Assembly: GCA_963788655.1 (NCBI GenBank)
Contig: CAWBHS010000115.1
Span: 1 to 38,597 of the forward strand
Source of the DNA: an uncultured Verrucomicrobiae bacterium
Lineage (GTDB): Bacteria; Verrucomicrobiota; Verrucomicrobiia; Limisphaerales; JAFGQR01
Direction of reading: 5' to 3'
Length of the DNA: 38,597 bases
A model generated the notes under the pieces. The model had not been told where the DNA came from. It was given only the letters and a program-made list of their open reading frames with translations, and ran no database searches. A program made the position numbers and the translations under genes. Of the stretch, positions 14,038 to 29,082 are shown piece by piece (position 1 is the stretch's first letter; each line of letters opens with the position of its first letter).

Positions 14038-14109
14038 AGCCGAATAAAACGTGGTTCCATCTTGGCCCCCGAACCTGGCCGTAACAAGGCCAAAGAGGCA
14101 AGATGTTTG

Positions 14110-14176
14110 CGCCTCGTTACGTCGGCTGCCACAGGATTTTGAAATTGCCTCAGCAGGTTGAAGATCTGCGTTACGG
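14110..14176 (-). repeat. Two adjacent REP-like elements of different families
   Basis: 14110-14133 revcomp tgtggcagccgacgtaacgaggcg (same family as 9046). 14151-14176 revcomp ccGTAAcgcagatcttcaacctgctg (tetranucleotide plus hairpin). Confidence 0.6.
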
Positions 14177-14661
14177 AGAGGCCGTGAAGTGGCGTGAGGC
14201 ATAGCCGTGCTCCTGTTCCAAACGTTGGCAAAGGGGCCTGGGCAGGCAGGATTAAGGGTGGAAGCGGTTGAGGGCCAGATCGACGAGCGAAAGAGTTGCA
14301 AGGTTGTTGTCATAGGCAAAGCGTTTCCCCACTGCACTGTTGGGGGGGACACGAACTGCCTGCGCCGATTCGAACCATTCAGTGTGATGCTCTGAGAATT
14401 GAATCTGCCATAACGCCAGCTCCGAAGATGGAGAAACAACGCTGCGGCCATCATGAACAATAACTGCCCATAACCTTCTCGGTGTTCCTCGTAACTCTGT
14501 GGTTCCTTCCAATGGGTCGCGCTTGCGGTGCCGCGATGAGTTAACCACGGCGCCACGAGGGACACCGAGGAGGAGTTGGCTCGGGTCAGTTTTTCCAGTG
14601 CTTTCTAAGCGAGTACGTGACCGTCCGGCGCGCTCGCTGCAAATCCAGATTGCGACGTTCG

Positions 14662-16408: not shown

Positions 16409-17029
16409 ATGAACAAATGTATTGAAGCAATGATGCGGGAGCACGACCTGATCGTACAGGTGCTGGCCTCGTTGCAGGACTGGACGGAACAACATCGGGC
16501 GGGCGGCGTTCCCATCCGTCAGGATCTGGCGGACTTCGGCCGGTTCTTCCGCGATTTTGCCGACAAGTGTCACCACGGCAAAGAAGAGGACCGGCTGTTT
16601 GTCAAAATGGTCGAGAGTGGGTTTCCCCAGGATGCAGGACCGATCGCGGTGATGCTCGCCGAACATGATGAGGGCCGCGCGGAAGTGCGGGGCTTGCTCA
16701 AGATCGGCGCGGGCACCGGACCGGTTACCGAGGCGGAAAAAGCGAGCGCAGTCGAATACGCCAGTCGGCTCGTGCCGCTGCTCTATGCGCATATTCAAAA
16801 GGAAAACAACATCCTTTACCCGATGGCGCAACAGGCCATTCGCGCCGATGAGTTCGCGCGTCTGGATCAGGATTGCGAAGCCTTTGACCGCCACGTCAGT
16901 GAGACCTTGGATGTTGGCGGACTCAAAGATCTCGCCACGGACCTGAGGCGGCGTTTCCCGGCGGACCCCGCTCGCCTCGCGCAGCATGGAGGGTGTGGTG
17001 CCTGCCATCCCAGCGCCCAGCACGCATAA
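16409..17029 (+). CDS. Hemerythrin (HHE cation-binding) domain protein
   Basis: MREHDLI, DKCHHGKEEDRLF, MLAEHDEGR, HIQKENNILYP: H/HxxxE/H/HxxxE di-iron pattern. Confidence 0.93.
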   Translation: MNKCIEAMMREHDLIVQVLASLQDWTEQHRAGGVPIRQDLADFGRFFRDFADKCHHGKEEDRLFVKMVESGFPQDAGPIAVMLAEHDEGRAEVRGLLKIGAGTGPVTEAEKASAVEYASRLVPLLYAHIQKENNILYPMAQQAIRADEFARLDQDCEAFDRHVSETLDVGGLKDLATDLRRRFPADPARLAQHGGCGACHPSAQHA

Positions 17030-17109: not shown

Positions 17110-18015
17110 ATGATGCAACGTGAACAACATTCGTTGACTGCCCTCGAAACCTTGGCTTCACCTCGCGGCAACAGTACGCGGCGCTTGCTCCGATTAGTTG
17201 CCGCCGGTTCTCTGCTGCTGATGGGGACGACGCTCTCAACTCACGGGGCCGCGTCACTAGCAGCCGCCGTTCTGTCCCAGTCCAAGGATCCTTCCACCAA
17301 CACTGTTCCTTTACCGACCGAAACGGCTTCGACAAACACGGACCTGGCCGCGGCGCGTTTCGCGACCACCTGCGCCGGCTGCCACAGTCTCACCGCCAAG
17401 CTGACAGGTCCACCGCTCGCGCCGGTCAGTGCCTGGCCGATGGAGCAATTAAAAACCGCGATCAAGCTCATGGAAAAAAACGTGGGGCCGCTGACGGAGG
17501 ACCAGATCACCGGACTGGCGGAGCTGCTGAAGTCGCCGAACGTGGACGAGCGCATCAAGACGGCGCAGGTCCGCATTCAGGCGCAGTTCATGGCCAAAAT
17601 GGCCCCGCCGGACGCGGCGATTGGCAAAGCGTTGTTCCTGGGTCGGCGACCGCTCCAGAACGGCGGGTTGGAATGTTCGGCCTGCCATACGGCCGGGAGC
17701 TTTGGCGGCAATCTGGGGCCGGACCTCGATGGAGTTTACGCCAAGATGGGCGACATGGCGCTGGTGTCGGCCATCGAAAAGGCGGCGTTCAAGGTCATGG
17801 AACCGGCCTACCGCTACAAACCCGTAACAACGCAGGAAGCAATGCATCTAGCGAAATATTTTTCCACCCTCGATCCGAAGGCGCCGGCGACGGGTCCCCT
17901 GCCCTACGCCCCGGTGGGCGCCGGTTGCGCGTTGGCCGGTCTGGTCAGCATGGTGATCTATTACCGCCGGGGGCGGTCGGGCCGAACGCGCACCCTCCAA
18001 CGGAGAAGGAAATAG
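17110..18015 (+). CDS. narC: Membrane-anchored diheme cytochrome c (NarC-like)
   Basis: N-terminal signal-like segment, CAGCH and CSACH motifs, GPDL and Met-containing distal segments, C-terminal TM plus basic tail. Ends 1 nt before narG, the position of Thermus-type narC. Confidence 0.82.
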
Positions 18016-18016
18016 C

Positions 18017-21000
18017 ATGAGCTGGATTCAAGACATTTTTGCCCCCGAAGACCGGACCTGGGAAACATTCTACCGGAGCCGCTGGGCTTACGACAAAAAA
18101 GTCCGCAGCACCCACGGCGTCAATTGCACCGGCTCGTGCAGTTGGGAAATTTACGTGAAGAACGGGATCGTGGTTTGGGAACTCCAGGCGCTCGATTACC
18201 CGATCATTGACCAGGAAATTCCACCTTACGAACCGCGCGGCTGTCAGCGGGGGATTTCCTATTCGTGGTACATCTACAGTCCGATTCGCGTGAAATACCC
18301 CTACATCCGTGGCGCGCTGTTGGACCTCTGGCGCAAGGCGAAGAAGAAATATCCGGATGATCCGGTGGAGGCATGGCGTTCGATCGTCACAGATCCGGAT
18401 TCGCGCAAGAAATATCATCAGGCGCGGGGCAAAGGTGGATTTCGGCGCAGCACCTGGGCCGAGGTCAATGAAATCATGGCGGCGGCGAACCTGCACACCA
18501 TCCAGCGACATGGGCCGGATCGAATTATCGGGTTCTCCCCGATTCCGGCGATGTCCATGCTCAGCTTCGCGTCGGGCGCGCGGTTTCTCGAACTCATGGG
18601 CGGCGTGGCGCTGTCTTTCTACGACTGGTATTGCGACCTGCCGCCGGCCTCGCCGGAAGTCTGGGGTGAGCAGACCGACGTCGCGGAGAGCGCCGACTGG
18701 TATCACGCGAAGTTCATCGCCACAGTCGGATCGAACGTGCTGATGACCCGCACGCCGGACGCGCATTTCCTCGTGGAAGCCCGGCATGGCGGCGCCAAGG
18801 TGGTGGTCTTTTCGCCGGATTTCAGCCAGACCTCGAAGGTCGCCGACGAATGGATCCCGCTGCACCAGGGCACGGACGGCGCGTTCTGGATGGCGGTTGG
18901 CCATGTGATCTTGAAGGAGAATTACGCCGACCGATCAGTGCCCGCCTTTGCCGACTACCTGCGGCGTTACAGCGACGCCGCTTTTCTGGTCACGCTTGAC
19001 CGGCAGCCCAACGGAACCTTCCGTCCCGGCAAACTGCTGCGCGCCAGCCAGCTTGCCGCCACGAAGGACCAGGAAAACGCCGATTGGAAATTTTTCGTCG
19101 TGGATGAAACCAGCGGCGAACTCAAAATGCCCAAGGGCACCATCGGCCATCGCTGGCAGAAGAAGAAAGGCGAGTGGAACCTCAAACTTGAGGACTGCGT
19201 GACCCACCAACCGATCCGGCCAAGGCTCGAACTCAAGGGTCAGTGCGATGCCACGCTCCCGATCGAAGTCACCGATTTCTCGGACAGCACGAACTCCCGC
19301 GTGATTTCCCGCCATGTTCCCGTGCGCAAGGTAGAGACCATGAACGGACCGGTGTTCGTCACCACCGCGATGGAGCTTTACTTCGCGCAATACGGCGTGA
19401 ACCGGGGTTTCGAGGGCGAGTGGCCCGCGGGTTACGAAGACGATTCCCAGCCGTTCACGCCGGCCTGGCAGGAGCGATTCACCGGTGTCAAAGGCGAGGT
19501 GGCGGTGAATTTCGCCCGCGAATGGGCGCGCACCGCCGAACACACGGGCGGCAAGTGCTGTGCCATTATCGGTTCAGGCGTCAACCACTGGTATCACAAC
19601 AACCTCATCTATCGGGCCGTCATCAACGCGCTGATGTTTTGCGGCTGTATCGGCAAAAATGGCGGCGGGCTGAACCATTACGTCGGCCAGGAAAAGCTGG
19701 TGCCGCAAGCCTCGTGGGCGCCCATTGCGTTCGGCGCCGACTGGGCCGGTCCGCCGCGGCAGCAGAACGCGCCGTCCTTCCATTACATGCACTCGGACCA
19801 ATGGCGCTACGACCGCGCCTTCAGCGAGATGTGCCCGGTCAGCGACGCGAAGCATCCGATGGCTCATGGCCACACGGCGGACAAGCAGGCGATGGCGGTC
19901 CGCCTCGGCTGGCTGCCGTGCTACCCTCAGTTCACGAAGAGCAATTTCGAGGTGCTCAAAGAGGCGCAGGCTGCGGGCGCAAAAACCGACGAGGAAATCG
20001 TTGCGCACACGGTTCAACAGTTGAAGGAGCGCAAGCTCAAGTTCGCCATGGAAGACCCGGACAACCCGGAATGTTTCCCGCGCGTCTTCTACATCTGGCG
20101 TGGCAACGCCCTGATGTCCTCCGCCAAGGGCCACGAGTATTTTCTCAAGCACTACCTGGGCACGCACCACAACGCCATTGCCGAGGAAGTCGCGAAACCG
20201 GATGTCCAGGACGTGACCTGGCACGACAAGATCGAGCTGGGCAAGATGGACCTGATCGTGGACCTCAACTTCCGCATGGACACCTCCGCGCTGTACTCGG
20301 ACATCGTCCTGCCCGCCGCGACCTACTACGAGAAGGACGACCTGAATTCGACCGATATGCACAGCTTCATTCACCCGCTGCAAGCCGCGGTGCCGCCGTG
20401 CTGGGAGTCGAAGAGCGATTGGCAGATTTTCCGGGGCATCGCCGAAGCCACCGCGAAGCTCGCTCCGCAATATTTCCCTGAACCGGTCAAAGACCTCGTC
20501 GCGTCGCCGTTGATGCACGACACGCCGGCGGAACTGGCGCAGGCGACGGTGAAGGACTGGGCCAAAGGCGAATGCGAGGCCATTCCGGGCAAGACGATGC
20601 CCAATTTCAAGGTCGTCACCCGCGACTATGCGAATCTGCTCAACCGCTTCGTCTCGCTCGGCCCGAATTTCCGCAACAACGGCCTCGCCGTTCACGGCAC
20701 GCATTACGACGTGGACGACGCTTACGATGCCTATCTGCGCACGCACACCGTCGAGAAGTGGGGCGGCAAGGAATATCCGTCGCTGCGCGACGACAAGGAC
20801 GCGTGCGATGTCATTCTCCATTTCGCGCCGGAGACCAACGGCGAGATGGCCCATCGCGCCTATGTCTCCGAGTCCATCAAGACCGGCCTTGACCACACGC
20901 ATCTGGCCGCCGATACGCGGGCGGTGCGGTACACGTTTGACGACTTGATCTCGCGTCCCTGCCGCACGTTGACGTCGCCTTATTGGACCGGCATCACCAA

Positions 21001-21649
21001 CGGCAAACGCACCTACTCGGCCTACTGCCAGAACGTCGAGGAATTGATTCCGTGGCGCACGCTCACGGGCCGGCAGCATCTCTACCTCGACCACGAGGTT
21101 TACGTCGCGTTTGGCGAGAACCTGCCTACCTTCAAGCCGCGCGGCGAATTGCGCCAGACGCGAGACCTGGAGAAAACCGCCAAAGCCGCCGGGAGCATCG
21201 TGCTGAACTACCTCACCCCGCACGGCAAATGGCATATCCACTCGACCTACGGTGACACGCTGCGCATGAAGACGTTGTCCCGCGGATGCTACCCGGTCTG
21301 GATGAACGACAAGGACGCCGACCTCATCGGGCTGGAGGACAACGGCTGGATCGAGGTGTTCAACGACCACGGCGTCGTTTGCACGCGGGCCATCGTCAGC
21401 GCCCGCATCCCGCCCGGCATCTGCCTGCTTTATCACTCGCCGGAGCGGACCCTCGGCGTGCCCAAGTCCCCCGAACGCGGCAACCGCCGCGCCGGCGGCC
21501 ATAATTCCTTGACGCGCGTAAAGCTCAAACCGCTGCTCATGATCGGCGGCTACGCGCAGTTCACCTACGCCATCAATTATTGGGGGCCGCCGGGGGTGAA
21601 CCGCGACACGTTCGTGGTCATCAAGAAACTCAACAAGGTGGAGTATTAG
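18017..21649 (+). CDS. narG: Respiratory nitrate reductase alpha subunit (Mo-bisPGD), cytoplasm-facing (no Tat signal)
   Basis: 1210 aa. FS0 motif [17 protein letters not shown], Mo-ligand [33 protein letters not shown]. Confidence 0.97.
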
Positions 21650-21652
21650 CTT

Positions 21653-23146
21653 ATGGATATCCGCGCCCACGTTTCGATGATTTTCCACCTCGACAAGTGT
21701 ATCGGATGCCACACGTGCAGTGTCGCCTGCAAGAACGTGTGGACCGACCGGCCAGGCGCCGAATATATGTGGTGGAACAATGTGGAAACCAAGCCGGGCA
21801 CGGGCTATCCCACGCACTGGGAGGACCAGCCGAAATTCAACGGCGGCTGGAAATGGAACGGTAACGGCAAGCTGAATCTCCGGTGTCAGAACAAGGCCGA
21901 TGCCTTCCTGAAGCTGTTCTACAACCCGAATCAGCCGAACCTCGACGATTACTACGAGCCGTGGACCTACAAATACGAGAACCTGTTCACCGCCAAGGCG
22001 GGCGACGACCAGCCCACGGCCGTGCCGGTGTCGCAGATCACCGGCGAACCCATTGAAATCAAGCAAGGCCCGAACTGGGACGATGACCTCTCCGGTTCGC
22101 CGATTTACGCGGAGAATGACCTGAACCTCGACAAGCTCAGCGAGGAGGAGCGCGCGCAGCTTTTCGAGATCGAGCGCGTGACGATGTTCTATCTGCCGCG
22201 CATCTGCAACCACTGCACGAATCCGAGTTGCGTCGCCGCCTGCCCTTCCGGCGCGATTTACAAACGCGGCGAGGACGGGATTGTCTTGATCAACCAGGAA
22301 AAATGCCGGGGCTGGCGCGCTTGCGTCGCCGCCTGTCCCTACAAGAAGATCTATTACAACTGGAAGACAGGGAAGTCCGAAAAGTGCATCCTGTGTTTCC
22401 CGCGTCTGGAAACCGGCCAGCCGCCCGCGTGCTTTCATTCCTGCGTGGGCCGCATCCGCTATCTCGGCGTGGTGCTTTACGACGGGGACCGCGTGCCGGA
22501 CGCGATGAAGGTGAGCGACCGCGCCCTGGTTGAATCCCAGCGCGACATCATCCTGGACCCGCACGATCCGAAAGTTGTGGCCGCCGCGCTCAAGAACGGC
22601 ATCAGCGAGGAGTTTCTTGATGCCGCGCAAAAGTCGCCGGCCTACCAATACATCATCCAATGGAAATTGGCTCTGCCGCTGCACATCGAGTATCGGACCA
22701 TGCCGATGCTGTTTTACGTCCCGCCGCTGCTGCCGGTCATGGGCAAGGCGACCAACGGCACGTACGGACATGAGGCGAAGGATTTCTTCACTGGCCTGGA
22801 GCAAGCGCGCCTGCCCATCAAATATCTGGCCAGTCTGTTCAGCGCGGGGAATGAGGAAGTCATCGAGGCGGTGCTGAAGAAGCTCATGGCGGTGCGGCAC
22901 TACAAACGTTGGCAGAACGTGCGCGATCTGCCGGAGAACGAGGTGCATAAGATTCTTCGTGAGGCGCAGACCACAGCGGAGGAAGTGGAGGAAATCTACC
23001 GGATGACCGCCCTCCCAACGCAATATCAGCGTTATGTTCTCCCGCCGCTGCAACGCGAGGAAGCCGTTCAAAACAGTTGCGATCCCGAAATCTGCAAGGG
23101 CTGTTCGGGCTTCAGCCTCAATCCCAGCTTGTCTCCCCGCTCATGA
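21653..23146 (+). CDS. narH: Respiratory nitrate reductase beta subunit
   Basis: LDKCIGCHTCSVACKN, PRICNHCTNPSCVAACPSG, CRGWRACVAACPYKK, KCILCFPR, CFHSCVGRIRY. Confidence 0.97.
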   Translation: MDIRAHVSMIFHLDKCIGCHTCSVACKNVWTDRPGAEYMWWNNVETKPGTGYPTHWEDQPKFNGGWKWNGNGKLNLRCQNKADAFLKLFYNPNQPNLDDYYEPWTYKYENLFTAKAGDDQPTAVPVSQITGEPIEIKQGPNWDDDLSGSPIYAENDLNLDKLSEEERAQLFEIERVTMFYLPRICNHCTNPSCVAACPSGAIYKRGEDGIVLINQEKCRGWRACVAACPYKKIYYNWKTGKSEKCILCFPRLETGQPPACFHSCVGRIRYLGVVLYDGDRVPDAMKVSDRALVESQRDIILDPHDPKVVAAALKNGISEEFLDAAQKSPAYQYIIQWKLALPLHIEYRTMPMLFYVPPLLPVMGKATNGTYGHEAKDFFTGLEQARLPIKYLASLFSAGNEEVIEAVLKKLMAVRHYKRWQNVRDLPENEVHKILREAQTTAEEVEEIYRMTALPTQYQRYVLPPLQREEAVQNSCDPEICKGCSGFSLNPSLSPRS

Positions 23147-24231
23147 ACTCGAAAGCAACCAGTATGACGGCGATGCACAAAGCCGATTCGATGAAAGCCG
23201 AATGGGGCGCTGTGCTCAAAGCGCTTGCCGGCTTGTTGGAGTATCCGGGAGCGGAATTCGATAGTAGGATCGAAAAAGTGCGGACGGCACTGCGGCGACT
23301 GGCTGCTGGGCCTGAATTGAACGTCCCTTCCCCCCTCACCCCGGCCCTCTCCCTCAGGGAGAGGGAGAATGATTCGCCGCCGGCGGGGCAAGGCGTTGCC
23401 ACAAAGACATTGAGACCGTCTATTTGCGAACCGACAGACGGCGACGACGATACCAATGGCAATGGCGCCACCTCGCTGCGTCCGTTGCTGTTCCCTCTCC
23501 CTGGGGGAGAGGGTCAGGGTGAGAGGAAAGAACGCGTCCATGGATTCAAGCCGATCATTACCTTCGAGCGTTTCCGCAATTCGATCAGCACTTTGTCCGC
23601 TGACGCACGCGAAGAGCTTTACACCGGCACGTTCGACGTGACGCCGGCCTGCGTGGCTTACGTCAGCATCCACCTGTTCGGCGAGGAGAATTTCAAGCGC
23701 GGCGAGTTCATGGCGGCGCTCAACGCGCGCTATGAGCAAAGCGCTTTCGATTGCGGCGGCGAACTGCCCGATCATCTTTCCGTCCTGTTGCGCTTTGCCG
23801 CGACGTTCCACGAGGATGAGCGCCGCGAATTGACCCAATTCTGCCTGCTCGGCCCAATTGAGAAGATGATCGCGTCACAAACGCCGGACAATCCTTACCG
23901 CGCGCTGCTCGAAACCGTGCGTGAAGTTTTCCAGGCCGCCTATCCGGGAATGAAACCCGCGCTCAGTCCGTGGGAACAGATGCAGCAGCACGGCGCCGGT
24001 TGTGCGGCCCTGACCGCGGGCTGTGGATGCAACCTTCTCTGGTCAGATGACGACGCACCGCCCGCCGAGGGGCGCATCAGGTTCGGAGTCCCGCCTTCAG
24101 GCGGTCCGGGCGTCGTGCCGCCTGAAGGCGGGACTCCGAACGGGAGTTTTCCAACAAACTCGAAGAGCGTTGCCAGCCAATCTGGAACGTTGAACCCCTT
24201 GTCTGCCCACTCAAATGAACTCCCTGGTTGA
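23143..24231 (+). CDS. narJ: Nitrate reductase Moco-insertion chaperone NarJ, enlarged by in-frame palindromic insertions
   Basis: ATGA overlap with narH. LLEYP, EELYTGTFD, LFGEENFKRG, ELPDHLSVLLRF, NPYRALL motifs. About 362 aa versus the usual ~180-240. Confidence 0.88.
   Translation: MNSKATSMTAMHKADSMKAEWGAVLKALAGLLEYPGAEFDSRIEKVRTALRRLAAGPELNVPSPLTPALSLRERENDSPPAGQGVATKTLRPSICEPTDGDDDTNGNGATSLRPLLFPLPGGEGQGERKERVHGFKPIITFERFRNSISTLSADAREELYTGTFDVTPACVAYVSIHLFGEENFKRGEFMAALNARYEQSAFDCGGELPDHLSVLLRFAATFHEDERRELTQFCLLGPIEKMIASQTPDNPYRALLETVREVFQAAYPGMKPALSPWEQMQQHGAGCAALTAGCGCNLLWSDDDAPPAEGRIRFGVPPSGGPGVVPPEGGTPNGSFPTNSKSVASQSGTLNPLSAHSNELPG
23331..23526. repeat. REP-like inverted pair (CCCTCACCCCGGCCCTCTCCC family) inside narJ
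   Basis: ccccctcaccccggccctctccctcagggagagggag (23331-23367) and ttccctctccctgggggagagggtcagggtgagagg (23491-23526) are near reverse complements. Confidence 0.9.
24081..24141. repeat. Perfect 24-bp inverted repeat (GGAG-type REPIN) in 3' part of narJ
   Basis: gttcggagtcccgccttcaggcgg (24081-24104), 13-nt loop, ccgcctgaaggcgggactccgaac (24118-24141). Confidence 0.92.
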
Positions 24232-25540
24232 CGCCTTCCTGTTTGTCGGGCTGCCCTACCTCGCCATCGTCACGGCGATCATTGCCGGTTATTGGCGATG
24301 GAAAACGAACCGCTACTCGATGTCGTCGCGGTCGTCGCAGTTCTTCGAGGACCGCCGGTTGCTGTGGGGCTCCGCCCCTTGGCACATCGGCATTATCGTG
24401 GTGTTGCTGGGCCACATCATTGCGGGTTTTCTGCCGACGGTGTGGTCAAGCCTGCTGACCGTGCCCGGCGCGCTCGTCACCGTCGAAACCCTGGGCGTGG
24501 CCTGCTCGTTGCTGGCGATTGCCGGACTTTCCGTGCTCATTTACCGCCGCATCACCTCGGCGCGGGTTCAGGCGGTGACGACGACGACGGACTTGGTCGT
24601 TGTCGCGTTGCTGCTGGTTCAGGTCATCCTTGGACTCGCGAGCGCGCTGCACTTCCGTTACGGCTCCCTCTGGAGCACGGGGACGGTGGTGCCCTATTTC
24701 TGGAGCTTGATCACGCTTCATCCCGATATGAGCTACGTGGCGGGTTTTCCGATGCTCTTCAAGCTCCACATCGTCGGGGCGTGGCTGATCATCCTGCTCC
24801 TGCCGTTCACGCGGCTCATGCACGTGCTGGCGGTGCCGCTGCCTTACCTCTGGCGGGCGCCGCAACTGGTCGTCTGGAACAATGCCCGGCGCCGCCGGCA
24901 GGCCGTGGCCGCCACCATCCGCGCCGACAGTCGCCGCGAGTTTGTCAAAGGCGCCGTCGGAATCGCCGGGGCGACCGGACTGATGGCGCTGGGCGTTTCC
25001 GAGAAGGGATTGAATTTCTTCAAGGGGCCGCGTCCCGATCTCGAGGCGGAAGCCGCGTTGCTGGAGAAGAAGATCGGTCGCTTGCGGCAAACCGCCGCCG
25101 AACACCAATTCGAACTGGAGCGGATGCAAAGCGACATGATTCTCGTCGCGCCTTACACCGAACTGACCGCGAACAAAGGCAAGTATTTCATCGCCTACGA
25201 CATGGCGCCCGGCCTCGCCTTCAAGGACAAGGACGGCCTGCCGTTGTTGATTTCCGCCAAATGCACCCACTTGGGCTGCACGGTTGCCAACGACGTGGAT
25301 AGCGATGGAGACATCCTGTGTCCGTGCCACATCTCGCACTTTGACATCCACACCGGAGAGCCAACGCCGGATTCTCCCGCCAAAGCGCCCTTGCCGTTCA
25401 TCGGCTGGGCGTTGGTGGACAGCGCCGGAAAAGTCGTCCTCAGCAAACAGCCGGGCCAGCCGGTGCGGGGCCAGGCGGATCCGGCGTTGTTCCGGCAATT
25501 CAGCGTGTACATCACCAAACCGGACCACGCAATCGCATGA
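24215..25540 (+). CDS. narI: Nitrate reductase gamma subunit NarI fused to a Rieske [2Fe-2S] domain
   Basis: Residues 1-~225: NarI (SSRSSQFFE, WHIGIIVVLLGH, KLHI...PFTRLMH; four heme His at spacings 10 and 18). Then SRREFVKG plus hydrophobic helix, a helical stalk, and Rieske boxes AKCTHLGC and LCPCHISHF. Confidence 0.93.
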   Translation: MNSLVDAFLFVGLPYLAIVTAIIAGYWRWKTNRYSMSSRSSQFFEDRRLLWGSAPWHIGIIVVLLGHIIAGFLPTVWSSLLTVPGALVTVETLGVACSLLAIAGLSVLIYRRITSARVQAVTTTTDLVVVALLLVQVILGLASALHFRYGSLWSTGTVVPYFWSLITLHPDMSYVAGFPMLFKLHIVGAWLIILLLPFTRLMHVLAVPLPYLWRAPQLVVWNNARRRRQAVAATIRADSRREFVKGAVGIAGATGLMALGVSEKGLNFFKGPRPDLEAEAALLEKKIGRLRQTAAEHQFELERMQSDMILVAPYTELTANKGKYFIAYDMAPGLAFKDKDGLPLLISAKCTHLGCTVANDVDSDGDILCPCHISHFDIHTGEPTPDSPAKAPLPFIGWALVDSAGKVVLSKQPGQPVRGQADPALFRQFSVYITKPDHAIA

Positions 25541-25556
25541 GGAGAAGAACCTTTCG

Positions 25557-26657
25557 ATGAACCTTCCCGAATCTATTCGCCGCACCGAGGATTACCTCGC
25601 GGAGCGTTTTCCCGTCGAGAAAATGAATTACGCCTCGATGGTCCAGAAGAAGGAGGTGCCGGTTCACCGCCTGTCCTGGGGGTATTATCTGGGCGGCTTG
25701 GCGCTGTTTTTCTTCCTGGTGCAGATCGTGACCGGTCTGCTGCTGCTGTTTTATTATCAGCCGACCGTCAGCGACGCGCACGCCTCGGTGGGATTCATCA
25801 CCGGGCAGGTGCCGGGCGGGGCGCTCATCCGCAACATGCACGCGTGGGCTTCTTCGCTGATGATCGGGGCGGTCATGGTTCACCTGATCACAACGTTTGC
25901 GATGAAGGCATTTGCCCGGCCGCGCGAATTGACGTGGATGAGCGGCGCGCTGCTGCTGGGGATCACCTTCGCGTTCGGATTTACCGGCTATCTGTTGCCC
26001 TGGCATCAGATCGCCGTCAATGCCACCAAGATTGGTCTGGATTCCATCGCGCAGATCGGCCAGTACCTGCCGGGCCGGATGGCGCATTGGCCCGCCGTCG
26101 TTGAGGAAACCATTCAAGGCGGTCCCACCGTCGGCCAGGCGACCCTGAGCCGCTTTTTCGCGCTGCACGTCATCGTTCTGCCGCTGTTGATTACATTGGT
26201 ATTGGGACTGCATCTCTTGTCCGTGCAACTGCACGGCATGAGCCGGGGTGTGGACGAAGCGCCACGCCGGCTCGAAAAGTTCTTTCCCACATTCTTCATC
26301 AAGGATCTTTCGGTGTGGGGCGTGGCGTTCATGGTGCTGTTTGTTCTCGCCCTGTGTTTGCCGTTTGAGTCGTTCTACCCTTATCCATTGTTTGCGCCGT
26401 TTAACCCGAACAGCTCGACGCCGGACGGCATCAAGCCCGAGTGGTATTTTTACTTCGTCTATTACCCGCTGGAGCTGCTGCCCTTCTGGGTCATCCTGCT
26501 GGGTTCCCTGGTCCTTGGCCTGATGCTACTGCTGACCCCATGGGTCTTCAAAAACACCAACCGCCGCACGCTGGGAGTGCTGGGCATCGCCATGGCCGCC
26601 TACCTGTTCGTGATGACCGTTTTTGGCGACCGGATTTACCACCTCTTCAAAGGTTGA
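25557..26657 (+). CDS. Cytochrome b of a Rieske/cytochrome b (bc-type) complex, unsplit, with Qo-site PEWY
   Basis: YYLGG, QIVTGLLLLFYYQP, IRNMHAWASSLMIGAVMVHL, FTGYLLPW, TLSRFFALHVIVLPLLITLVLGLHL, IKPEWYF. Start ATG 25557. Confidence 0.93.
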   Translation: MNLPESIRRTEDYLAERFPVEKMNYASMVQKKEVPVHRLSWGYYLGGLALFFFLVQIVTGLLLLFYYQPTVSDAHASVGFITGQVPGGALIRNMHAWASSLMIGAVMVHLITTFAMKAFARPRELTWMSGALLLGITFAFGFTGYLLPWHQIAVNATKIGLDSIAQIGQYLPGRMAHWPAVVEETIQGGPTVGQATLSRFFALHVIVLPLLITLVLGLHLLSVQLHGMSRGVDEAPRRLEKFFPTFFIKDLSVWGVAFMVLFVLALCLPFESFYPYPLFAPFNPNSSTPDGIKPEWYFYFVYYPLELLPFWVILLGSLVLGLMLLLTPWVFKNTNRRTLGVLGIAMAAYLFVMTVFGDRIYHLFKG

Positions 26658-26672
26658 CCAGATGAGCAAAGC

Positions 26673-26697
26673 AAATCCAAAATCCAAAATCCGAAAT
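26673..26697 (+). repeat. Heptamer tandem AAATCCR x3.5
   Basis: aaatcca aaatcca aaatccg aaat; a reverse-complement-like degenerate TTCGGAT array lies at 27016-27074. Confidence 0.7.
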
Positions 26698-26831
26698 GGA
26701 TGGCAGGGCCGCGAAGTGGTTAAGCCACGGCAGCATTCTTGCGCATCGCATCCATCCGCGGGACACATTGACGAGACTGGGGAATGGGCCACACTTTCCC
26801 GTACCCCAACGCGGCCCAACCGCAACCAATA

Positions 26832-26901
26832 CGGAGCGCGGACATTCTTGTCCGCCTCAAATAATTCGCGGCGGGGAGCGGACAAGAATGTCCGCGCTCC
26901 G
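26832..26901. repeat. Perfect 24-bp inverted repeat (GGAG-type REPIN)
   Basis: cggagcgcggacattcttgtccgc (26832-26855), 22-nt loop, gcggacaagaatgtccgcgctccg (26878-26901). Confidence 0.92.
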
Positions 26902-27048
26902 GGGCCTCCGGCGGAATCGTCGCGGCCGGCGACGCTTCGGAGCCATACTGATGAAGTGCGACTCGGCGCTACCGGCCGGGTGCCATTCTGTGGTGCAGCT
27001 CGCGGCTTGTTGAGTATTTCGGGCCTTCGATCTTCGAGGTTCTTTCGA

Positions 27049-27684
27049 ATGTCGGATTTCGGCGTTCGGATTTCTGGGCTCATCACTGCCTTCGTGCTCC
27101 TCGCGGCCCCTTCGCTCCACGCCTATCCCGAATTCCGCGCCTTCATCGTCCAGCATTCTGGCCGGCCGGTGGATTGCGCCATGTGCCACGTTAGTCACGA
27201 CGGCCCGCAAGGCACTGGCCCGGGACAGATCGGCAGCCTGACACCCGCCGGACTGGAAGCGCTGGGTCGCGCCAGGACGGCCTTTGCCCCGGGGTCGAAG
27301 GCGGAAAACCCGATCCTCAACGCCTTCGGGAATCATATCATCCAGAGCATTGGCCTGACCAAGTTTCGTGAACTCCGGCTGATGCCCGCGGAGTTGGCGA
27401 AGGTTCTGCCGCCGGACAGCGACCTCGATGGCGACGGCATCTCCGACGTGCAGGAATACCTGGATGGCACCAGCCCCGTGGACAAGGACAGCGGCCTGCC
27501 GTGGCTGCTTTTCAAAAACAACTTCAAGCGAAATTTATCCGAGATTTTCCTGACCCTCGCGGCAACGGCAGCCGGACTTTACGGCCTCAGCCACCTGCTC
27601 CGCGGCTTCGCGAAGGCCACCGAAGTGACCTCGGAAGACGAAGAGGAACCCGGGCTGGAGGCAATTGAATCGAGACCGTCCTGA
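27049..27684 (+). CDS. Exported monoheme c-type cytochrome with Ca-binding-like DxDxDG motif and C-terminal membrane anchor; in-frame alternative start at 26662
   Basis: Signal-like LITAFVLLAAPSLHA|YPEF, DCAMCH, DSDLDGDGISDVQEYLDGTSP, C-terminal TM IFLTLAATAAGLYGL. Follows cytochrome b. Confidence 0.75.
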   Translation: MSDFGVRISGLITAFVLLAAPSLHAYPEFRAFIVQHSGRPVDCAMCHVSHDGPQGTGPGQIGSLTPAGLEALGRARTAFAPGSKAENPILNAFGNHIIQSIGLTKFRELRLMPAELAKVLPPDSDLDGDGISDVQEYLDGTSPVDKDSGLPWLLFKNNFKRNLSEIFLTLAATAAGLYGLSHLLRGFAKATEVTSEDEEEPGLEAIESRPS

Positions 27685-27717
27685 ACCTCAATCCATGCAT
27701 CGGAAGACACGACGACT

Positions 27718-29082
27718 ATGAAAACATCCAGATCGGAAACTGAAAGTGCGGCGCGGGTGCGTGGCACCCCTTCACAGGGACTATTTGGCGCCACGCTGGG
27801 CTTCTTTATCGGCTTCGCGGCCGTGGCGCTGTTCGGTCCCACCGCCAACAAGTTCAAGGAAGTGATGCACTTGACTCCGGTCATGGTGGGGTTCCTGGTA
27901 GCGATGCCCAGCCTTTCGGGGTCGCTGCTGCGCATCCCCTTCTCCGCGTGGGTGGACACCGATGGCGGGCGCAAACCTTTTCTGGTGCTGTTGGGACTCG
28001 CCATTGTGGGCATGGCTGGGCTGGCCTTCGTGGTTTCGTTCCTCTACCCGAACCGTCTCACGCCGGAGCTCTACCCGTTGTTGCTGTTGCTGGGTTTGTT
28101 CTGCGGAGCGGGCATCGCCACGTTCTCCGTGGGCATCAGCCAAGTTTCCTATTGGTATCCCAAGGAGCGCCAGGGCAGCGCGCTGGCCACGTACGGCGGT
28201 CTGGGCAATCTCGCCCCAGGGATCTTTTCGTTCCTCATCCCGGTGGCGCTGGGGTCAATCGGACTGGCTGGCTCCTACTGGGCCTGGTGCCTGTTCCTTG
28301 TCATTGGCACCGCGCTGTACTTCATGACCGGCCGGAACGCCTGGTATTTTCAACTGCGCTCCAAGGGGCTTTCCCGCGAAAACGCCCGAACAACAGCGGG
28401 TGAGCGGGGCCAGGAAATTTTCCCTTCGGGCAATGTCAAAACCAGTCTCCTGATTTCAGCCAAGGTCTGGAAAACCTGGGCACTGGTCGCGATTTATTTC
28501 ACGACGTTCGGCGGCTTCCTGGCCCTGACGGCCTGGTTCCCGACTTACTGGAAATCTTTCTTCGCCGTCAGCGCCGTCACCGCCGGCCTGCTGACCGCCG
28601 CCTATTCGATCCTCACCTCGCTCGTGCGTGTGGGAGGAGGCAGGCTTTCTGATCGAATCGGTGGGGAACGGACGGCCATCATGGCGCTGGGCACGATGCT
28701 GGTCGGCGCGGTGGTGATGACCTTCTCGCACACCTTCGCCATCTCGATTGCCGCCGCCCTCTTGATGGCGGTGGGCATGGGCGTGTCCAACGCGGCGGTG
28801 TTCAAGCTGGTGCCCCAGGAAGTGCCGCGCGCCGTCGGCGGAGCGGCCGGCTGGGTCGGTGGCCTCGGCGCCTTCGGCGGGTTCAGCATCCCGCCAATTC
28901 TGGGCGTGATTGTCACGCGGCAAGGTTTGGATGGCTACGCGTTTGGATTCATTGTATTTGTGGTGGTGAGCGGCCTCTCCTTGTTGCTGGCCATGGTGTT
29001 GAAACAAACGCATGCGCGGACAGTCCGCCGAAGCAACGTGGTTGCCAGCGCGGGATCCCTGGCCTCCAACCACGCCAAGTGA
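27718..29082 (+). CDS. narK: Nitrate/nitrite MFS transporter (NarK/NNP family)
   Basis: 12-TM MFS. GSLLRIPF, FSVGISQVSYWYPKERQGSALATYGGLGN nitrate signature, TFGGF, VRVGGGRLSDRIG, GWVGGLGAFGGF. In nar operon. Confidence 0.9.
   Translation: MKTSRSETESAARVRGTPSQGLFGATLGFFIGFAAVALFGPTANKFKEVMHLTPVMVGFLVAMPSLSGSLLRIPFSAWVDTDGGRKPFLVLLGLAIVGMAGLAFVVSFLYPNRLTPELYPLLLLLGLFCGAGIATFSVGISQVSYWYPKERQGSALATYGGLGNLAPGIFSFLIPVALGSIGLAGSYWAWCLFLVIGTALYFMTGRNAWYFQLRSKGLSRENARTTAGERGQEIFPSGNVKTSLLISAKVWKTWALVAIYFTTFGGFLALTAWFPTYWKSFFAVSAVTAGLLTAAYSILTSLVRVGGGRLSDRIGGERTAIMALGTMLVGAVVMTFSHTFAISIAAALLMAVGMGVSNAAVFKLVPQEVPRAVGGAAGWVGGLGAFGGFSIPPILGVIVTRQGLDGYAFGFIVFVVVSGLSLLLAMVLKQTHARTVRRSNVVASAGSLASNHAK

Follow-up and report, generated by a model that had tools for sequence, protein, structure and literature searches.

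A single gene in the window (the whole stretch of DNA analyzed, 38,597 nucleotides) encodes one polypeptide in which a Rieske protein, apparently with its own Tat signal-anchor retained, adjoins the C-terminal end of a complete NarI of five predicted helices and two predicted haems. We propose that this fusion is built by Sec and Tat together and functions in a Q cycle, and we put the probability of this reading as a whole at roughly 0.6. Pfam assigns residues 7-221 to Nitrate_red_gam (PF02665; E 2.3e-61; 207.7 bits, cut-off 22.9), the match spanning profile positions 2-216 of 217, and residues 312-391 to Rieske (PF00355; E 5.1e-7; 30 bits, cut-off 20.3). The earlier note had named a sequencing error, hiding a stop between narI and a separate Rieske gene, as what would undo the fusion. 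The reading frame is uninterrupted, both domains are present in all 120 of its best relatives in a database search, and 458 relatives were found among species-representative genomes. Because these relatives share the fusion, a sequencing error or concealed stop was rejected as its source, indicating that the fusion is genuine. The fused gene is also the sole NarI of this genome.

Table 1. Positions in the window of the genes of the operon and of the segments of the fusion.
Feature	Position	Strand	Residues	Basis and remarks
cytC2, dihaem c-type cytochrome	17110..18015	+		CAGCH and CSACH; Pfam Cytochrom_C; signal sequence, C-terminal membrane anchor
narG, catalytic subunit	18017..21649	+		Pfam; N-terminus MSWIQDIF...HGVNCTGSC
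narH, iron-sulfur subunit	21653..23146	+		Pfam Fer4_11, Nitr_red_bet_C
narJ-like chaperone ORF	23077..24231	+		Pfam Nitrate_red_del at residues 173-254; start uncertain
narI::Rieske fusion gene	24215..25540	+	441 aa	Uninterrupted ORF; PF02665 and PF00355 matches
NarI domain	24215..24886	+	1-224	Five helices; haem ligands H57, H67, H185, H203
Cytoplasmic linker, basic and variable (RRRRQAVAATIRAD)	24887..24928	+	225-238
Internal twin-arginine motif S-R-R-E-F-V-K	24929..24949	+	239-245	Read directly from the sequence
Sixth helix, predicted Tat signal-anchor (FVKGAVGIAGATGLMALGV)	24941..24997	+	243-261	Within model helix 225-270
Basic stretch after helix 6 (SEKGLNFFKGPRPDL)	24998..25042	+	262-276	3 K+R in the query
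Predicted periplasmic "stalk" helix, conserved	25040..25129	+	276-305	AlphaFold2; invariant residues
Rieske [2Fe-2S] head	25136..25537	+	308-441	Pfam Rieske; box I CTHLGCTV, box II CPCHISHF
Cytochrome b	25557..26657	+	366 aa	Pfam Cytochrome_B, E 2.3e-38; PEWY Qo motif, two His pairs
cytC1, monohaem (CAMCH)	27049..27684	+		Signal peptide, C-terminal anchor
MFS transporter, probably a NarK-type nitrate/nitrite carrier	27718..29082	+		Pfam MFS_1

The NarI part of the fusion aligns with residues 4-221 of the 225 of E. coli NarI (E 1.6e-24), its four ligands H57, H67, H185 and H203, located in helices 2 and 5, falling on H56, H66, H187 and H205. In the wider alignment (A2) none of the four histidines varies; alignments A1 and A3 bear this out for all but H203, which is almost fully conserved in A3. 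The modelled domain matches the NarI chain 1q16_C at a TM of 0.81-0.82 (Foldseek). These results fit the NarI topology assumed beforehand: given the alignment with E. coli NarI and the retention of the four haem histidines, the C-terminus of the NarI part is expected to be cytoplasmic, and one more helix would therefore put the Rieske domain outside. Lysine and arginine counts point the same way, with 6, 3 and 9 in the predicted cytoplasmic loops of the query and 0, 0 and 1 in the predicted periplasmic ones. The positive-inside rule is thus obeyed by the fusion, the sole exception being the three basic residues after helix 6.

Reading the codons at 239-245 (agt cgc cgc gag ttt gtc aaa) bore out the twin-arginine motif that had been claimed there. 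An xRRxFxx motif is present in 120/120 of the best relatives (119 in one count, with the N-truncated P0106 taken separately), and the arginine pair is kept in all 38 of the more distant fused copies, which come from other phyla at 42-60% identity; conservation of the pair across fused homologues had been proposed as a check. In a linker that otherwise varies, R240 and R241 never change and F243 changes rarely if at all, indicating that the motif exceeds chance. The columns of linker 225-238 vary except at R225 (invariant or nearly so) and R226 (nearly invariant in A1). The cytoplasmic segment 199-242 of the query holds 9 K+R, and AlphaFold2 gives a pLDDT below 50 at residues 217-225.

The residues after the motif, GAVGIAGATGLMALGV, form the least hydrophobic of the six helices of the query, at +4.3 against -1.7 to +2.0 for the others on a crude 19-residue sum (higher means less hydrophobic). 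By the same crude sum helix 6 is least hydrophobic in 38 and second-least in 20 of 63 family members (58/63 combined), its family mean of +4.1 being only slightly above the +3.3 of the His-bearing helix 5. The 15 residues that follow carry 3 K+R in the query and 2.6 on average in the family, with a minimum of 1; K264 of this stretch is invariant in A1. Basic residues behind the last helix have been linked to release from Sec (Tooke 2017, PMC5449189; here and below, statements taken from papers refer to the excerpts used). The earlier note was right in calling the helix weakly hydrophobic, but its statement that there is no clear cleavage site needs correcting: a small-x-small pattern (A/S/T/G-x-G) closes the helix at residues 258-260 in 61 of 64 sequences, so that a signal-peptidase site is possible there. 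Beyond it, the segment described as a stalk is modelled as a helix at 276-305 (block pLDDT ~90), followed by a beta-rich Rieske head at 308-434. Six of the stalk residues are invariant in A1 (L283, K285, R289, L290, L301 and R303), and stand-alone Rieske relatives have the stalk helix as well. The pTM of the whole AlphaFold2 model is only 0.52, leaving the relative placement of the domains uncertain.

By sequence, the closest solved relatives of the Rieske head are the Thermus and bc1/b6f Rieske proteins. Box I reads CTHLGCTV in 119 of 120 relatives and box II C-P-C-H in all 120, disulfide cysteines included; the two extra box cysteines presumably form the disulfide of the bc type. CPCHISHF, on which a statement about redox potential had been built, is present in the query and exceptional in the family (1/120), where CPCH[IV]SYF is the norm. 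The replacement of Tyr by Phe after box II makes a lower-potential centre plausible.

Relatives of the Rieske part also occur on their own. The stand-alone proteins P0127, P0129 (present on 17 contigs) and P0131, of 224-229 aa, run through arginine pair, helix, stalk and head from their own N-terminus, and an RRxFL motif also stands at the N-terminus of three further Rieske ORFs of this genome. When metagenomes were scanned with P0127, the 2 loci obtained were both fused forms within the same type of operon. In another lineage P0125 joins a cytC2-like haem domain to the same type of Rieske protein, its resemblance to cytC2 amounting to 40% identity over 95 aa (E 2e-17).

Insertion of the fusion by Sec plus Tat is well supported in silico, by the NarI topology, the weak helix 6 with its basic residues, the N-terminal position of the motif in stand-alone relatives, and TatC, which is encoded in this genome and in each of the 5 further carrier genomes examined. 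The computational checks proposed in the earlier note all turned out in its favour. We consider it quite probable that biogenesis is divided between Sec for helices 1-5 and Tat for helix 6 and the Rieske domain. Sec/YidC would insert helices 1-5 co-translationally with the N-terminus out, and the weakly hydrophobic helix 6 with its trailing basic residues would escape Sec insertion. The [2Fe-2S] cluster would be loaded into the Rieske domain in the cytoplasm, after which the internal SRRxFLK motif would direct the folded domain, together with helix 6, to TatABC, and this helix would remain as an uncleaved anchor. The sequence features of "class IV" Tat substrates are found in the fusion and its genome: an arginine pair before the last helix, a C-terminal cofactor domain, TatC in the genome and, by our crude method, a last helix of low hydrophobicity with charges downstream. 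Polytopic Sec and Tat substrates, Sco3746 among them, were already established, so that the "new class" of dual-pathway substrate announced earlier was an overstatement; judged by its sequence, the fusion would be a new family within class IV.

The fusion belongs to an operon. The order cytC2, narG, narH, narJ, narI::Rieske, cyt b, cytC1 is conserved in the 80 best loci, which span Verrucomicrobiota, Obscuribacterales, Hydrogenedentota, Planctomycetota, Acidobacteriota and others. Cytochrome b, which starts 16 bases downstream of narI::Rieske, follows directly in 77/80 of these loci and keeps PEWY in 74 of the 77, and cytC1 is present in 73/80, with exactly one CxxCH in all 73 homologues; every locus that misses cyt b or cytC1 is one whose DNA ends first. 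Upstream of narG, cytC2 is found in 57/80, and a relative of the MFS transporter lies nearby in 57/80. Pfam also identifies MobA and MOSC genes in the operon. The N-terminus of NarG lacks an arginine pair here and in 55/55 homologues, which gives no sign of a Tat signal in this subunit. For positions 23900-27700 no RNA run is listed, and only two soil DNA runs are, with small shares.

Co-folding of the fusion with cytC2 scored 0.70, whereas the best of three controls scored 0.00. The score is the model's own confidence and not a measurement; among solved complexes 116 of 157 pass the mark, against 2 of 215 mismatched pairs, and these counts apply only approximately here, since our own alignments were used. 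Between runs, at least 83% of the contacts are shared, and the partner pLDDT is at least 76. The region of the second haem motif of cytC2 (186-192 and 228-235) contacts the periplasmic loop 145-179 of NarI, and the anchor helix of cytC2 (264-285) contacts NarI helix 3, suggesting that cytC2 docks on the periplasmic face of NarI. The only solved NarI-family chains that matched by sequence are those of E. coli NarGHI, which contains no cytochrome c, so the result is unlikely to reproduce a known structure.

In textbook bacterial nitrate respiration NarGHI draws electrons directly from quinol. Our preferred reading, to which we give an even chance, is that the nitrate reductase of this operon is fed through a Q cycle, the fusion tying NarGH to the Rieske/cytochrome b complex encoded next to it. 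The fusion would tether cytoplasm-facing NarGH to a dedicated complex of the same operon, in which the Qo site of cytochrome b would oxidize menaquinol. The Rieske cluster would hand one electron to the membrane-anchored cytC1 and/or the dihaem cytC2, and this electron would enter the periplasm-side haem of NarI and cross via the two NarI haems to NarH/NarG, where nitrate would be reduced. A nitrate reductase coupled to a Q cycle in this way would move ~4 charges per 2 electrons instead of 2, roughly doubling the charge moved per nitrate reduced. More tentatively, at slightly less than even odds, the operon would encode a respiratory supercomplex complete in itself, which gene transfer would have carried into more than 10 bacterial phyla and in which the Q cycle feeds Nar, NarI acts as an electron acceptor for cytochrome c and not as a quinol oxidase, and the fusion is at once tether and N-out Sec/Tat substrate.

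Loss of the quinol site of NarI was considered as a test of the electron route. K86 of E. coli NarI acts at this site, and the fusion has no equivalent, K86 aligning with A86 or V88. The nearest stand-alone NarI relatives likewise lack K86 and share E91 with the fusion, indicating a feature of the clade and not of the fusion, and the test is uninformative; nor is K86 a residue that defines the NarI family. No difference was detectable between the NarI domain of the fusion and these relatives, so nothing shows a loss of the quinol site, and it is possible that NarI of the fusion still oxidizes quinol directly.

This resemblance to ordinary stand-alone NarI of the same clade is also what a mere scaffold would predict, in which two independent enzymes are co-assembled, NarI oxidizing menaquinol while the Rieske/cyt b complex serves other periplasmic acceptors (nitrite, NO or N2O reductases, or oxidases, for example) through cytC1/cytC2. 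Four further Rieske/cyt b gene pairs in the genome fit bc complexes that serve several chains, and in characterised bacterial chains electrons reach Nar without passing the bc complex (Baymann 2012, PMC3509893). We nevertheless regard a scaffold as unlikely, because the seven-gene set from cytC2 to cytC1 moves as a unit over many phyla, as expected of a self-sufficient system and unexpected if the acceptors lie elsewhere, and because the co-fold puts the second-haem region of cytC2 on the periplasmic face of NarI. A lower chance still is left to a processed precursor, whose helix 6 would be a cleavable Tat signal, cut after the A/S-x-G of 258-260 to release a separate Rieske protein, so that the fusion would serve only targeting or stoichiometry. 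The small residues kept at both 258 and 260 in 61/64 family members would suit such cleavage, but Rieske proteins of bc complexes generally retain the Tat signal as an anchor (2026 Tat review, PMC13673990). Stand-alone relatives moreover share the helix and have no other anchor, and the Gly-rich pattern may equally be a helix-packing motif.

Fed by a Q cycle, as we prefer, the enzyme would reduce nitrate; run backwards, it would be a nitrite oxidoreductase, sending electrons via NarI to c cytochromes, with some of them driven in reverse into the quinone pool by way of the bc complex. The Nitrobacter-type nitrite oxidoreductase is arranged in this manner, with an enzyme of NarGH type facing the cytoplasm and a subunit resembling NarI. 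However, the NarK-like transporter, MobA and MOSC of the operon are typical of nitrate respiration, and none of the named carriers of the fusion is known to oxidize nitrite, which makes reverse operation very improbable. We give scarcely any credence to an artefact or a non-exported protein, that is, to a frameshift hiding two genes, a Gly/Ala segment that does not span the membrane, or export independent of Tat. Fragmentary genes elsewhere in the window, perhaps assembly errors, would suit an artefact, but the same uninterrupted fusion recurs in hundreds of independent assemblies. Against a Rieske domain left inside, the arginine pair is invariant, the extra box cysteines are kept, and the partner cytochrome b retains the PEWY of the Qo site, which faces the periplasm.

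Several known systems share parts of this design. E. coli NarGHI (PDB 1Q16) has the same NarI fold, haem ligands and narGHJI order, but its NarI ends at residue 225 and oxidizes quinol directly, whereas here a Rieske protein extends the chain and K86 has no conserved counterpart. In the polytopic Rieske proteins of actinobacteria (QcrA, S. coelicolor Sco2149; Keller 2012, Tooke 2017) Tat likewise exports the Rieske domain behind Sec helices, and an internal arginine pair directly precedes a last, weakly hydrophobic helix followed by basic residues. The extra helices of that type are two (once four), N-in and, in these sources, of no known cofactor function, whereas the extra part of our fusion is a complete five-helix, two-haem NarI, predicted to be N-out. 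The Sco3746 family (PMC5449189), an established dual Sec/Tat substrate, also combines a predicted two-b-haem membrane domain with a Tat-exported cofactor domain. It differs in its haem-b fold, in exporting a molybdenum-cofactor domain and in having four Sec helices and one Tat helix, N-in, and is described there without a link to nitrate reductase or bc complexes.

On the side of electron transfer, haloarchaeal Nar operons (NarB/NarC, pNarGH) contain Rieske and cyt b genes, and a Q-cycle complex has been proposed to feed Nar there (Baymann 2012, PMC3509893). Haloarchaeal NarGH, as described, is exported, faces outward and lacks NarI, whereas our NarG lacks a Tat signal and a NarI exists, fused to the Rieske protein. 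Likewise, Streptomyces Nar1 needs the bcc-aa3 supercomplex, and electron flow from QcrC to the NarI haems has been proposed (Falke 2021, PMC7931247), so that in S. coelicolor a cytoplasm-facing NarGHI would be fed by a bc complex via a dihaem cytochrome c. The Nar1 genes are separate and unlinked and the association is known from co-purification; in our case the connection takes the form of a fused gene in a conserved operon. A periplasmic cytochrome c is also combined with a dihaem b protein of the NarI family in the Hmc-type complexes of sulfate reducers (PMC10924467), with other partners and chemistry and, in the text excerpted, no Rieske/cyt b module.

A search of freely accessible literature found no paper describing a NarI-Rieske fusion. 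Neither Tooke 2017 (PMC5449189) nor the 2026 Tat review (PMC13673990) contains the word "NarI"; PMC8862662 and PMC10924467 contain both "NarI" and "Rieske", in contexts that are unrelated in the passages at hand. If our reading is true, a large, widespread family joins the few membrane proteins that require both Sec and Tat. Its N-out topology with five Sec helices is absent from those reported in the excerpts of Tooke 2017 (PMC5449189), a paper that sets out rules for the Sec-to-Tat handover, and would therefore provide a natural test of these rules. The fusion suggests that two respiratory enzymes usually regarded as distinct are hard-wired to each other. Together with the conserved operon it would lend independent genetic support to a Nar wired behind a Q cycle, an idea so far proposed, in the excerpted sources, only from indirect evidence in Streptomyces and haloarchaea. 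The energy yield of nitrate respiration would then be underestimated in Verrucomicrobiota, Obscuribacterales, Hydrogenedentota, Acidobacteriota and others, and a plain "nitrate reductase gamma subunit" annotation would conceal a different machine.

Some minor observations concern neighbouring genes. cytC1 matches no Pfam family; its Atlas cluster is unnamed, with 280 members that are mostly from Verrucomicrobiota, and Atlas leads to Temptin_C and TSP3_bac are weak. Other parts of the window hold some fragmentary genes, which may reflect assembly errors. The narJ-like ORF contains palindromic insertions, visible as inverted repeats at 23332-23526 and 24081-24141.

The narI::Rieske gene encodes a complete nitrate reductase gamma domain joined to a Rieske domain, and the SRREFVK motif lies between them (see table). 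The earlier note had proposed this motif as an internal twin-arginine signal; the positions it gives agree with the sequence, and so do its Gly/Ala-rich segment, its helical stretch EAEAALLEKK...ELERMQ and both cluster-binding boxes. A search of 5.8 billion proteins with the fusion gave 435 matches at E ≤ 0.001 among 8000 scored candidates. The best 120 of these 435 are 57-100% identical to the query and 377-441 aa long, and every one carries both Pfam domains. Furthermore, when species were scanned with a single genome each, at least 597 stretches matched, at least 458 of which encode a relative. The best 80 of these loci lie in MAGs labelled Verrucomicrobia, Obscuribacterales/Melainabacteria, Hydrogenedentota, Sumerlaeota, Planctomycetota, Acidobacteriota, Eisenbacteria, Omnitrophota and others. 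Since both domains recur in all 120 best relatives and relatives occur across the species genomes, a sequencing error hiding a stop between narI and a separate Rieske gene is excluded. A genome search indicated that the fused gene is the sole NarI of its own genome.

Family alignments of 32 and 64 sequences show that R240 and R241 are invariant in both, that F243 is invariant in the smaller and nearly so in the larger, and that the linker 5' of the motif is variable. All 120 best relatives carry xRRxFxx, 119 at the expected place and the N-truncated relative P0106 elsewhere; the commonest forms are SRREFLK (38) and SRREFIK (26). The arginine pair is likewise kept in 38/38 more distant fused copies (42-60% identity). 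Using residues 225-441 alone, we searched 1.84 billion representatives and obtained 643 matches at E ≤ 0.001, 15 of them at E ≤ 1e-30. Among the best are three stand-alone proteins of 224-229 aa, P0127, P0129 (found on 17 contigs) and P0131, whose N-termini read ...LSRRYFIRG, ...ERRAFVKA and ...DRRLLVRG, after which helix, stalk and head come in each as they do in the fusion. Three other Rieske ORFs of the own genome have TRRSFLD, RRREFLQ and NRRHFLA at their N-termini, and a fourth gives no clear reading. TatC is encoded in this genome and in 5/5 other carrier genomes tested. Stand-alone relatives with an N-terminal motif, together with TatC, lend independent support to the prediction that the motif acts as a Tat signal.

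We examined on which side of the membrane the Rieske head would lie. The N-terminal half of the fusion aligns with residues 4-221 of the 225 of E. coli NarI (E 1.6e-24), and counted along this alignment the haem ligands H56, H66, H187 and H205 become H57, H67, H185 and H203. All four are invariant in the wider family alignment, A2, and H203 is only nearly invariant in a further one, A3. An AlphaFold2 model of the NarI half superposes on 1q16_C with a TM of 0.82. E. coli NarI has a periplasmic N-terminus and a cytoplasmic C-terminus, an orientation with which the K+R counts of the fusion are consistent; family means by segment follow the same pattern. Since the NarI C-terminus is cytoplasmic and one further membrane helix follows, the Rieske domain would lie outside. 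Thus the NarI alignment, the charge counts and the sixth helix together predict a periplasmic head, as the earlier note had supposed. The periplasm is where a bc-type Rieske protein must work, which fits the retention of both extra box cysteines and the PEWY Qo motif of the partner cyt b. In bc-type Rieske proteins these two cysteines form a disulfide.

Several features of the fusion resemble those of a Sec-to-Tat handover. The text of Tooke 2017 (PMC5449189) ties such a handover to a last helix of low hydrophobicity with positive charges behind it, and requires the loop before the RR motif to count 8 residues or more; in the fusion this loop has more than 30. On a crude hydrophobicity sum over 19 residues, helix 6 (residues 243-261) scores +4.3 and is the least hydrophobic, helices 1-5 lying between -1.7 and +2.0; by the same sum it ranks least hydrophobic in 38 and second-least in 20 of 63 family sequences, with family means of +4.1 for helix 6 and +3.3 for the His-bearing helix 5. 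The low hydrophobicity is real but modest. In the query, three K+R stand among the 15 residues that follow helix 6 (family mean 2.6, minimum 1). An AlphaFold2 run on the fusion (64 sequences, mean pLDDT 86.5, pTM 0.52) gave a long helix at 225-270, the conserved stalk as a second helix at 276-305, and a head rich in beta structure that spans 308-434. Signal peptidase may instead cut after a conserved A/S/T/G-x-G at the end of helix 6, a pattern kept in 61/64 family sequences. We predict that narI::Rieske forms a new family among the substrates that use both Sec and Tat. In the literature searched, no paper was found to describe NarI fused to a Rieske protein. The word "NarI" occurs neither in the main text of Tooke 2017 (PMC5449189) nor in the text of a 2026 review defining class IV Tat substrates (PMC13673990). 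The N-out screen, in the text of the former, yielded the YkuE family only.

The fusion gene sits within a tightly packed operon. We compared the operon proteins by tblastn with the best 80 of the at least 458 loci, and gene order was identical everywhere. At all loci without a match to cyt b or cytC1, the DNA stops short of the expected place. Exactly one CxxCH is present in 73/73 cytC1 homologues, PEWY in 74/77 cyt b homologues, and RR, sought at the N-termini of NarG homologues, is absent in 55/55. The own genome has four further adjacent Rieske/cyt b gene pairs, making five in all (contigs C17, C98, C58, C93 and C115).

Operon genes, fusion segments and their matches in the best 80 of at least 458 loci
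Feature	Position	Strand	Matched loci	Remarks
cytC2	17110-18015		57/80	dihaem c-type cytochrome, C-terminal anchor
narG	18017-21649		66/80	N-terminus without RR
narH	21653-23146		71/80	
narJ-like ORF	23077-24231		72/80	
narI::Rieske	24215-25540	+	NarI 80/80, Rieske 80/80	fusion; single uninterrupted frame, 441 aa
gamma domain of nitrate reductase, complete	residues 7-221			Pfam, E 2.3e-61
SRREFVK motif	codons 239-245, 24929-24949	+		read from sequence
Rieske domain	residues 312-391			Pfam, E 5.1e-7, 30 bits vs cut-off 20.3
segment, predicted periplasm	residues 1-6			K+R = 0 (query)
segment, predicted cytoplasm	residues 26-57			K+R = 6 (query)
segment, predicted periplasm	residues 77-91			K+R = 0 (query)
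segment, predicted cytoplasm	residues 111-126			K+R = 3 (query)
segment, predicted periplasm	residues 146-179			K+R = 1 (query)
segment, predicted cytoplasm	residues 199-242			K+R = 9 (query)
cyt b	25557-26657		77/80	
cytC1	27049-27684		73/80	monohaem CAMCH protein, signal peptide, C-terminal anchor
MFS transporter	27718-29082		57/80 (NarK-like)	probably NarK-type

As described in the text of Baymann 2012 (PMC3509893), haloarchaea have Rieske and cytochrome b genes inside the nar cluster, proposed as feeders of an outward-facing NarGH; as for Bacteria, the same text has Nar bypassing the Rieske/cyt b complex in those that are characterised. In Streptomyces coelicolor the bcc-aa3 supercomplex is needed for Nar1 activity, and the text of Falke 2021 (PMC7931247) argues from known potentials that electron transfer from dihaem QcrC to the NarI haems could take place and that the energy span would permit a Q cycle. 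Judged from its gene content, the present operon has, as one unit, the parts that a route from bc complex through cytochrome c to NarI haem would need. What is new in the fusion is that a Nar facing the cytoplasm is tied, at the level of the gene, to a Rieske/cytochrome b complex.

Co-folding of narI::Rieske with cytC2 scored 0.70, against 0.00 for the best of three controls; the mark is reached by 116/157 solved complexes and 2/215 mismatched pairs, a calibration that is only rough here because our own alignments were used. Contacts agreed between runs at 83% or more, with partner pLDDT of at least 76. All confident contacts on the fusion side fall within the NarI domain. Periplasmic loop 145-179 meets cytC2 residues 178-202 and 228-235, the stretches around its second haem motif (C189-x-x-C192-H193) and around the invariant M230. 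The cytC2 anchor helix and tail (264-285) are met by NarI helix 3 (82-103) and by residues 50-55, where helix 2 starts on the cytoplasmic side. The docked orientation agrees with the membrane topology derived for the fusion. Among solved structures, sequence matching gave NarI-family chains from E. coli NarGHI alone, which makes a pass by memorisation unlikely. Docking of cytC2 on the NarI domain is thus predicted, the score being the model's own confidence. The search with residues 225-441 also returned P0125 (433 aa), in which a cytC2-like monohaem domain (40% identity to cytC2 over 95 aa, E 2e-17) is followed by a helix, then by an RR motif with another helix behind it, and finally by the same kind of stalked Rieske domain. 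From this natural fusion there is a hint that cytC2 may sit next to the Rieske anchor, and P0125 would itself be another candidate for insertion by both Sec and Tat. A live alternative is that NarI oxidises quinol directly and the fusion merely serves as a scaffold. The NarI domain may well keep a quinol site of its own: K86 of E. coli is not conserved, but the nearest stand-alone NarI proteins (40-53% identical; labelled Actinomycetota, Chloroflexi, Margulisiibacteriota and Holophagaceae) also lack it and share E91 with the fusion, so that its absence marks the clade and not the fusion.

Box II of the Rieske domain keeps its Ser across the fusion family, with an invariant Phe at the position of the Tyr of bc1 and b6f Rieske proteins. 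Judged by mutagenesis of Rieske proteins, the Phe should moderately lower the potential. Menaquinol is the quinone of Verrucomicrobia, and such a lowered potential would suit it. CPCHISHF is the form of 1/120 sequences, the query itself, the family norm being CPCH[IV]SYF. At this box (25322-25345) the query has His where 110/120 relatives have Tyr, and the SHF form also occurs in two distant Melainabacteria copies.

The operon contains three palindromic elements (23332-23526, 24081-24141 and 26832-26901). The narJ-like ORF is lengthened in frame by ~100 codons through the first, an inverted repeat pair of 35 nt (89% complementary). The other two are perfect inverted repeats of 24 nt, one in the narJ 3' extension just before narI and one in the cyt b-cytC1 spacer. 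The cytC2 N-terminus (17110-17270) has a twin-arginine-like motif in its signal region, unexpected for a c-type cytochrome, and no such motif was seen in the homologue N-termini examined. The conserved, membrane-anchored monohaem protein cytC1 is without a Pfam family; it has an Asp-rich stretch, DSDLDGDGISD, recalling calcium-binding repeats, and belongs to an unnamed Atlas cluster of 280 members, mostly Verrucomicrobiota.

Between 31549 and 37736, dihydroxy-acid dehydratase and parts of pyruvate/2-oxoacid dehydrogenase are encoded by fragmentary genes with partial Pfam profile matches, which suggests frameshifts or assembly errors there. Just upstream of the operon are a large sensor kinase with dCache, HAMP, several PAS and HisKA_3 domains (11182-14565, reverse strand) and a hemerythrin-domain protein (16409-17029, forward strand), candidate regulators or sensors of nitrate, oxygen or NO.
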